In this document: piece after piece, positions 5,763-7,257 of the stretch | Position numbering within the stretch: the stretch's first letter is position 1 | Layout: every line of letters begins with the position of its first letter | Sequence record: SRR20825019_659 | Strand: one strand, 5' to 3' | Length of the DNA: 37,804 bases | The notes under the pieces: model-generated | Told to the model about the DNA's origin: nothing | Databases searched by the model: none | The model's input: only the letters and a program-made list of their open reading frames with translations | Position numbers and translations under genes: made by a program

Positions 5763-5909
5763 AGCGGTTTCCCGCATATCCCGGCCGCCAAACGAACGAC
5801 CGGTCCACCGGGTCGCCGTCGTCTTATACATCCCATACATGAGGTTGCTGCTCCCCTCGGCGGGTGAGACTATCCGCCGTGGTTTGTCGAAGACCTAAGG
5901 AGAGCAGCG

Positions 5910-6853
5910 ATGGAATATTACGTTGGATTGGACGTCAGCCTCAAGAGCACACATATCTGCGTTATGGACCTGGAACGGCAGGTGGTGTGGCGCGGGAGGG
6001 CGGATACGCAGCCGTTGATGATCGCGGAACGGCTGGCGAGATGGAAAGGTCATCTGGCGAAAGTCGGTCTTGAGACAGGTTCGATGACGCCTTGGCTCTA
6101 CCACGAACTGAAGGCTCTGGGGGTTCCTGTGGTCTGCATGGATGCGCGGCGCGCCGCGGACGCCGTGAAGGCTCGGCCTGAGAAGACGGACAAGGCGGAT
6201 GCGCAGGCGCTTGCCGAGATGCTGGCGAGCGGCTGGTATTCAACGGTTCATGTGAAGACAATGGAAAGCCACCGACTGAAGGCGCTGTTGGGAGCACGCG
6301 AGCAGTTGGTCAACGTGAAGCGCCAGTTTTACGGCCAGATCCGAGGGCTTTTGCGTCCGTTCGGCATCAAGATCTCGACACGCTTGTGCGGGTTGAGGCC
6401 GAATTGGTCGGCCTCGACAAGAAGGTGCGCCAGATTACTGCAGCATCGAAGCCATGCTGGCATCTGATGTCGGTGCCAGGTGTTGGGCCGCTGACCTCTC
6501 TGGCCTTCGTGGCGACGGTGGAAGACCCCGGGCGGTTTCGAACAGCCAGGTCCATCGGTTGCTATATCGGCCTGACGCCAAGGAGGTATCAATCCGGCGA
6601 TCGGGATGTGACAGGCTCGATCTCCAAGCAGGGCGACGAGATGTTGCGGCACTACCTGTATGAGGCGGCGGGCTGCCTGCTGACGACAGTGACCGCACCG
6701 TCCGCTCTGCGAAGCTGGGGTTTGAGGCTGGCCAGGCGGCTGGGTCCCAAGCGTGCACGGACGGCGGTCGCCCGCAAACTGGCGGTGCTGCCGCTTGGGC
6801 TTTGGAAAAGGGAGGATCATTTCCGCGCAGTGCCCGGCGGAAAGGCTTTTTAG
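5910..6853 (+). pseudogene. IS110 family transposase/recombinase, internally deleted and frameshifted at ~6375
   Basis: N-terminal half has GLDVS, GLETG, KTDKAD (DEDD); C-terminal half has SVPGVGP, IGLTPRRYQSG, GSISKQG, AVARKLA in a different frame. Confidence 0.9.
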
Positions 6854-7110
6854 AAACCGAGATCGAGAAGTTCGTTCGCAGGCAAATCCTCAGTGTCCAT
6901 GAGGTAAAGCGACCGGACCGGGAAGGACGAATGCGAGACAGTTGGATGCGGATCAAGGACCGCGTTTAATACACTGCATCGGCCCCTGTATGCGAAGCGA
7001 AAAGCCCTGGATAGTGGTGGCGGACAAGGACATGCCGCACACCGAAGAGAACCATGGGACGCTTGCTATGCTTCGACCGGATTGGACAAAGGAAAAGCGA
7101 ACAAAAATCT
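6854..7110 (+). ncRNA. Candidate bridge/seek RNA in the IS110 3' non-coding end
   Basis: About 260 nt non-coding segment inside the IS, with several short stems; AGAGAACCA (7046-7054) is identical to the right junction (7130-7138) and TATG (7067-7070) is complementary to core+left end CATA. Boundaries approximate. Confidence 0.6.
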
Positions 7111-7257
7111 TGACGCAGCAGCCAAATGTAGAGAACCAGCGCCCAACGTTCAGAACTCACGAGCCGATTTCGGCGGCGACGACAGGATCGCGATGTTGCC
7201 GGGGACAACGAAACTGCTTGCCACCGTTGGAAGCCTTCAGCCAATGCGAAGACTGCC

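Follow-up and report, generated by a model that had tools for sequence, protein, structure and literature searches.

A probable non-autonomous IS1111-type element with a predicted 3' guide-RNA gene and an apparent target at the tips of IS630-family elements

The window analysed here is a 37,804-nucleotide stretch of DNA from sequence record SRR20825019_659. At positions 5826 to 7135 it carries a 1310-bp defective insertion sequence of the IS1111 type (IS110 family), delimited by the block that it shares with its relatives and by intact paralogous targets. The element lies on the plus strand, as do all features below unless stated otherwise. Taken as a whole, the reading of this segment as a non-autonomous copy whose ends and 3' RNA gene look intact is one that we regard as probable, with good confidence. 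An earlier note, made from the letters of the window, had proposed that the 3' non-coding end of an IS110 element at this place reads out its own donor junction in the manner of a bridge RNA. That guide-RNA idea is right in outline and wrong in anatomy.

The IS110-family transposase gene (5910-6853) is split over two frames. Its N-terminal DEDD/RuvC-like part (5910-6380, in an open reading frame (ORF) at 5910-6467) matches PF01548 (E 1.9e-16) and its C-terminal part, in the other frame at 6386-6853, matches PF02371 (E 4.5e-24), each above the Pfam cut-off. The two frames result from a deletion. When the element is aligned with intact relatives that have a 344-aa product, its positions 1-558 and 548-1313 correspond to 1-558 and 639-1403 there, and from this offset a 91-bp internal deletion with a shift of frame was placed between short repeats at about 6373-6383. 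The undeleted form, with about 86 extra bases at the deletion site, was present in contigs of the public runs X4 and X18. Downstream of the gene lie 282 nt of non-coding DNA (6854-7135), as against 84 nt upstream (5826-5909), and the C-terminal ORF contains GLTPRRYQSG, which fits the GL-P----S(T)G motif of IS1111 transposases. In the text of PMC11187229 the IS1111 group is described by that motif, by a longer non-coding region downstream of the transposase gene and by subterminal inverted repeats of 7-17 bp. The element was assigned to this group, as defined there and in PMC11208160, because of its 282-nt downstream region, its subterminal inverted repeats with terminal extensions, and its GLTPRRYQSG motif. 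The earlier assignment to the IS110 family and IS1111 type is supported by the two Pfam domains and the long 3' non-coding region.

Relatives of the element were collected from plasmids (8 records at 80-90% identity), species genomes (19 loci) and metagenomes (80 kept of 310, at 94-42% protein identity). The block common to them starts with ATACATCC and ends with AGAGAA, and both boundaries are fixed by intact paralogous targets. Within the 53-94% group every copy begins ATACATCC (window 5826) and finishes ATGTA(G/A)AGAA (window 7135). One metagenome-assembled genome has the element at six sites; five of these copies are 100% identical and the sixth is 99.78% identical, and all read exactly ATACATCC...AGAGAACCA; a near-identical copy at another site in run X4, a lake metagenome, has the left flank ...CCACTTA before 5826. 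The subterminal inverted repeats are TACATGAGGTTGCTGC at 5836-5851 and GCAGCAGCCAAATGTA at 7115-7130, the former matching the reverse complement of the latter at 13 of 16 positions. Outside them stand terminal extensions of 10 bp on the left and 5 bp on the right. The left extension, ATACATCCCA at 5826-5835, is element and not target, being present in every copy at 39 distinct sites and in none of the nine intact targets described below.

Occupied and intact copies of the target were found side by side in two settings. In one genome an IS630-family copy with transposase ORFs present reads ...ggcTA, then the inserted element (ATACATCC...AGAGAA), then CCAGCTTGCGG, and an uninterrupted paralog in the same genome, 99.8% identical, reads ...catcaTA|CCAGCTTGCGG. 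The other terminal repeat of that IS630-family host ends ...CCGG|TA. The right flank in Pannonibacter belongs to a roughly 100-nt repeat, a miniature inverted-repeat transposable element (MITE) with at least 40 copies; of ten fetched, two were occupied and eight were not. The uninterrupted MITE copies start with CCA in seven of eight cases, are preceded by TA in five of eight, and in no case (0/8) carry ATACATCC. Together, the nine intact targets (one IS630 paralog and eight MITEs) have TA, GA or AA followed by CCA or CGG, with ATACATCC in 0/9. TA is the target duplication of the IS630 family, and this accounts for the TA that stands directly before ATACATCC at 26 of 39 sites.

The flanks of the relatives give the consensus C-T-A|C-C-A-R-C (39 distinct left flanks, 33 distinct right flanks). 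On the left, T is found at -2 in 36/39, A at -1 in 27/39 and both as TA in 26/39; on the right, C occupies +1 in all 33 and CCA is complete in 25. Of 31 right flanks, 11 contain an IS630-type transposase gene, which can point either way. Judged by these flanks and by the intact targets, the target of this insertion family is TA|CCA(A/G)C, the point where the duplicated TA meets the start of the terminal repeat in IS630-family elements and in the short non-autonomous MITEs derived from them. The comparison of occupied with intact paralogs also gives the IS1111 trait of insertion without target duplication into a specific target (consensus CTA|CCARC) in one orientation, and on this comparison no dinucleotide is duplicated on insertion. 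For the window copy the left target half is TT at 5824-5825, where the family consensus is C-T-A, and the right half is CCAGC at 7136-7140. Since intact targets lack ATACATCC and begin with CCA, ATACATCCCA was assigned to the element and the CCA at 7136-7138 to the target, with an overlap of at most one base (A). The far end of the IS630 hosts was examined for the left extension in reverse (GGATGTAT), and no such copy was found. A protein-coding target, with W-D-V-L read across the site, was considered and dropped; the flanks share nothing further.

The earlier note had set the ends at 5836 and 7136/7138, and the conservation of relatives and the intact targets move them to 5826 and 7135. Its model was of an element at 5836-7136 with a duplicated core CA, a target TACATCC-CA-N, and AGAGAAC+CA and TATG as the left and right donor guides. 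Several features speak for such a model: CA, in fact CCA, does occur at both 5833-5835 and 7136-7138; ATACATCC stands before CA in all copies, which is what a highly specific left target would do; the left end contains ATACAT twice; and in other subfamilies the left-end segment copied in the RNA lies directly against the inverted repeat, just like the second ATACAT of this element. The misplacement of the ends is understandable given the two ATACAT copies and the two CCA. The model is nevertheless very improbable. All nine intact targets lack ATACATCC, the TA found at 26/39 sites is explained only if ATACATCC came with the element, and TATG is not conserved, so the core CA and the circle junction AGAGAAC-CA-TACAT were rejected. 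The proposed empty target TACATCC-CA-GCGCC was rejected as well, intact paralogous copies reading TA|CCA(A/G)C. As for TATG as a right donor guide, a 4-nt match is trivial, and relatives have TTAGCC, TTAATC, TGAAGC or nothing in its place. With the ends at 5826 and 7135, the circle junction is predicted to read ...ATGTAGAGAA|ATACATCCCATACATG.

An RNA core of the bridge or seek type is predicted at 6924-7078 (about 6925-7070) by a covariance-model match of 152 bits, the window copy being included in the alignment that built the model. Three helices define it. Helix P1 encloses loop 1 (6925-6935 with 6975-6984; nine pairs, seven of them changed on both sides), hairpin P2 lies in loop 1 (6947-6951 with 6960-6964; five pairs, three changed on both sides) and hairpin P3 in loop 2 (7015-7022 with 7036-7044; eight pairs, five changed on both sides). 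Across 25 distinct 3' regions aligned, 96.9% of the cells of P1-P3 were paired and 15 of 22 pairs were compensatory; none of 500 shuffles reached the observed value, and slid partners gave 26-54% paired. The covariance model found 53 matches in 54 sources, down to families at 42-48% transposase identity, and in the alignment fitted to the model 96.4% of cells were paired, with 13 of 20 pairs compensatory. The prediction that the 3' non-coding region encodes a conserved structured RNA with two internal loops is thus supported, and the claim of a bridge-like RNA at the 3' end is upheld by the covariation in P1-P3 and the model built on it. We infer that the RNA would be made, would bind the transposase and would pair with DNA, and infer likewise the assignment of its strands to the steps of the reaction.

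If the 3' region worked as DNA only, through transposase-binding sites and parts of a promoter, no functional RNA would be needed. The lack of an Rfam match and of a promoter in the integrated state would suit that explanation, as would the fact that the RNA role of the region is here a prediction. Base-pair covariation of the kind found in P1-P3 is expected of an RNA and not of DNA sites, however, and the known family makes such RNAs from the same region according to the text of PMC11187229 and PMC11208160, which leaves the DNA-only explanation with very little likelihood. Further downstream, a -35-like TTGACG stands at 7110-7115. The CTTGAC that contains its first bases is invariant in 25 aligned close relatives, supporting the -35 noted earlier at 7109-7115, and inspection by eye shows it in most families at greater distance. 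A complete canonical promoter was looked for in the integrated state and none was found. The invariant CTTGAC is in line with a junction promoter.

All the strings on which the earlier anatomy was built are in place: AGAGAACCA at 7046-7054 and 7130-7138, TATG at 7067-7070, CATA at 5834-5837, CGAAG at 7043-7047, CTTCG at 7071-7075, TACACTGCA at 6970-6978 and TTGACG at 7110-7115. The stem proposed between CGAAG and CTTCG is absent from the consensus fold, and its 3' arm falls in a region that cannot be aligned outside the closest clade. The segment TACACTGCA, tentatively taken as a left target guide plus core, is not supported in that role: the predicted structure splits it, placing the first half in the loop strand UUUAAUACAC and making the second half (CUGCA) the 3' arm of P1.

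Three strands in the two loops resemble guides. The first is the 5' strand of loop 1, GUUGG at 6941-6945, which reads antisense to the target's right half, CCA(A/G)C, and is identified by covariation across subfamilies; its pairing with CCAGC needs a G:U pair. Across subfamilies this strand tracks the flank, with the guide/flank combinations CCCAGACCG/CGGTCTGGG, GCAGACCG/CGGTCTGC, GAGGCUG/CAGCCTC, AGAGCCCG/CGGGCTCT and GCGG/CCGC, and a position-restricted permutation across subfamilies reached the observed agreement in 0/5000 cases. A search for the longest common substring of flank and RNA over the whole region was uninformative (5.30 for cognate against 5.03 for non-cognate combinations). 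One or two U after GUUGG are able to pair with the element's final A. The second strand, 3' of the first in the same loop, is UUUAAUACA at 6965-6973, a sense copy of the left junction that consists of the flank TA and the element's first bases ATACA. Sense copies of the left end, 7-10 nt long, occur in loop 1 by subfamily, ATACA here and TTTCACACAT, TTTCCACCT and ACACCACAT in others, and cognate left ends fit this strand better than swapped ends (0/3000 permutations). The order in loop 1 is therefore antisense guide 5' of sense guide. The sense strand matches just the TA of the left target half, and the right half has an antisense strand with good support across subfamilies.

The third strand is the 3' strand of loop 2 (7046-7054), in which AGAGAA, a sense copy of the right end, is followed by CCA. 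Its A(G/A)AGAA equals the element's last six bases and covaries with them at window positions 7047 and 7131: all 47 distinct elements are concordant (39 G/G, 8 A/A, 0 discordant), and the A/A state occurs in two separate lineages. The CC(A) after AGAGAA is constant even in subfamilies with a different right flank, and in single-sequence folds its CC pairs with GG at 7009-7010; for both reasons the CCA of this 9-mer is probably structural rather than a guide, and its identity with the right flank of the window copy may be chance. The earlier proposal that a loop strand reads the donor end thus holds for AGAGAA, which copies the right end and covaries with it, but not for CCA, which at the junction is target DNA. 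The repeat of AGAGAACCA itself was also part of that proposal. It occurs exactly twice in the 37.8-kb window, where 0.20 occurrences are expected and 1 of 100 shuffles reaches two, but exact 9-nt repeats are common here: among the matches listed for a 1.6-kb stretch, 20 repeat families include five exact 9-nt pairs. The weight of the 9-mer comes from conservation, since 9-nt repeats are commonplace in 1.6 kb and yet 47/47 relatives are concordant.

AGAGAA(C) and the left-end copies might be motifs that the transposase recognizes in both DNA and RNA, or relics of an end duplication, and not pairing guides at all. AGAGAAC-C is nearly invariant over 42-94% transposase identity, CCA is unchanged where the flank changes, which is more the behaviour of a protein-binding or structural motif than of a programmable guide, and both copies are in sense orientation. 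On the other hand, the joint change from G to A in two lineages and the subfamily-specific copies of the left end fit pairing at least equally well, the antisense strand next to them plainly follows variable flanks, and the RNAs of IS621 and of IS1111 elements pair with DNA experimentally, as stated in the text of PMC11208160 and PMC11187229. We consider this explanation unlikely. Reading the strands as guides, the 5' strand of loop 1 (GUUGG) would pair with the right target half, the 3' strand UUUAAUACA runs collinear with the left junction, made up of the target's TA and the element's ATACA, and the AGAGAA of loop 2 is a sense copy of the element's right end.

Several observations weigh against this reading of the element and its RNA. 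The outer helix around loop 2 is confined to folds of single sequences, and a column-wise search for it yielded a run of 4 bp only, in a part where the alignment is poor. No Rfam match was obtained at E values up to 1. Contigs of run X18, an RNA library, cover parts of a 90-95% relative, among them 6547 to about 7001, with no cover beyond; such libraries may contain DNA, and these contigs give only a weak hint of a transcript. Within the close family the match of guide to flank is marginal (p 0.066 strict, 0.045 with wobble), and the permutation tests ignore relatedness. A strand antisense to the left end is limited to the 5-nt GGAUG/CATCC and is lost in other subfamilies. The left target half is barely specified, at 2 nt, and TA is absent at 13/39 sites. 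Finally, no orthologous empty site of the window locus was found in the plasmids, genomes and public runs searched, and the boundaries rest on paralogous targets of relatives.

The earlier model rested on a core dinucleotide shared by donor and target. The overlap between them is at most 1 nt (A), and 12 of 39 sites lack that A. A tentative idea, and one that we think doubtful, is that the guide RNA is laid out by junction and not by substrate, with donor and target sharing no core dinucleotide. In such a layout the sense strands would be TA+ATACA for the left junction and AGAGAA+C(CA) for the right, and the antisense strand would read the right junction (AA|CCAAC). Were this true, the layout would fit cutting of each strand at one exact position, for example single-strand transfer followed by copying. 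It would equally fit an RNA that matches the integrated element best and thereby serves excision no less than insertion. Both possibilities would depart from the core-based double exchange of IS621.

The element has much in common with the IS1111 seekRNA elements ISEc11, ISKpn4, ISPst6 and ISPa11 as presented in the text of PMC11187229: a DEDD transposase, the GL-P----S(T)G motif, the downstream non-coding region, subterminal repeats with extensions, and site- and orientation-specific insertion with no target duplication. In the same text the seekRNA strand complementary to the target top strand stands 5' of the sense strand and a -35 lies in the right end, as here. The differences are in the terminal extensions, 10 and 5 bp here where 7 and 3 (or 6 and 3) bp are reported there, in the target, which is here the tip of an IS630-type element, and in the sense strand, which here runs into the element's own left end and not into the target, in contrast to the description in that text. 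With the IS621 bridge RNA, as far as it is described in the text of PMC11208160 and PMC11208158, the predicted RNA shares two internal loops each with a hairpin, a sense guide for the left half of the donor, and an antisense guide for the right half of the target, after which one or two bases complement the donor end (UU facing AA) in a handshake-like arrangement. Unlike the IS621 RNA in those descriptions, it is predicted to lie 3' of the gene, has the order of guides reversed, has no CT-like core shared between donor and target (at most one base, A), and has no antisense guide identified for the right half of the donor. The element also resembles known IS110/IS1111 elements whose homing site is a conserved sequence in some other mobile element, the difference being that insertion here is at the TA|CCA junction, on one tip or the other of IS630-family elements and their MITEs. 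Among the titles and abstract openings returned by a keyword literature search, none concerns IS1111 elements that target IS630 inverted repeats.

RNA-guided recombinases of the IS110/IS1111 type are under development as genome-writing tools, and mechanistic knowledge of them comes mostly from IS621, with the IS1111 branch less understood. The relatives collected here form a natural data set, with dozens of insertion sites, intact copies of the target repeats and graded relatives at 42-94% transposase identity. The targeting of IS630 tips, the copies of the element's ends in the predicted RNA and the apparent lack of a shared core are all readable from sequence.

For the window itself, the analysis yields an annotation of a dead element with corrected ends inside the relic of another insertion sequence. 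The relic is part of an IS630-family transposase gene adjoining the element at 7165-7224 on the minus strand (local tblastn: 20 aa, 60% identity, E 1e-4). DNA look-alikes fall in IS630-type genes of other genomes, and the right part of the relic matches PGNI.IL..PPKS. By spacing, judged by eye, the CCA at 7136-7138 corresponds, read in reverse, to the Trp codon in the conserved NPVENLW stretch of an IS630-type gene, and for this reason the window copy appears, by eye, to occupy an internal look-alike site (TT|CCAGC) of the IS630 gene relic. Searches for an empty site gave, in the plasmid collection, no match for the left flank and only LysR-gene look-alikes for the right; in 401 genomes of the family around genome G002 nothing spans the site; and among public runs, X1 contains the whole occupied stretch and X3 contributes two contigs with no cover left of 5974 and no joints. 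As a separate observation, the left flank at about 5790-5825 resembles, by eye, the YEDIVD...WR stretch, with about 45 nt of the IS630 gene apparently missing at the insertion point.

Two features were seen in the 5' leader of the element. An inverted repeat, GCTGCTCCCCT at 5847-5857 and AGGAGAGCAGC at 5898-5908, joins part of the left subterminal repeat to the ribosome-binding site before the ATG at 5910. All aligned relatives displayed retain the two arms, some of them with GCTGCTCTCC, which gives perfect pairing, and the hairpin may hide the ribosome-binding site in read-through transcripts. Between the arms, a terminator-like hairpin at 5858-5879 has nine pairs followed by TGGTTTGT; one such site is within shuffle expectation.

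Some relatives depart from the standard form. Seven loci (L018-L024), each in a different Mesorhizobium species, hold the same relic (L018 2417-2993), made up of the N-terminal 149 codons and a tandemly duplicated right end. Its identical stretch recurs in further genomes of the genus, a 297-bp repeat that is common in Mesorhizobium begins 26 nt downstream of it, and no clean empty site for the L018 relic was found among 121 genomes. At L132 the last 35 or so bases of the element are tandemly duplicated at the right end, and at L123, L125/L162 and L130 other DNA is inserted between the RNA gene and the right end. On pAtS4c of Allorhizobium ampelinum S4 (L003) the arrangement is nested, with an element that has no left end standing after another IS110-family gene. 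Nesting is also seen on pTiB230/85 (L079), where a second, unrelated IS110-family gene and an IS5 gene come after the host IS630 element. Loci L129 and L010 have a common left flank, and on its right side L129 has the other terminal repeat belonging to the IS630 element of L011, a pattern that suggests a rearrangement or an assembly variant.

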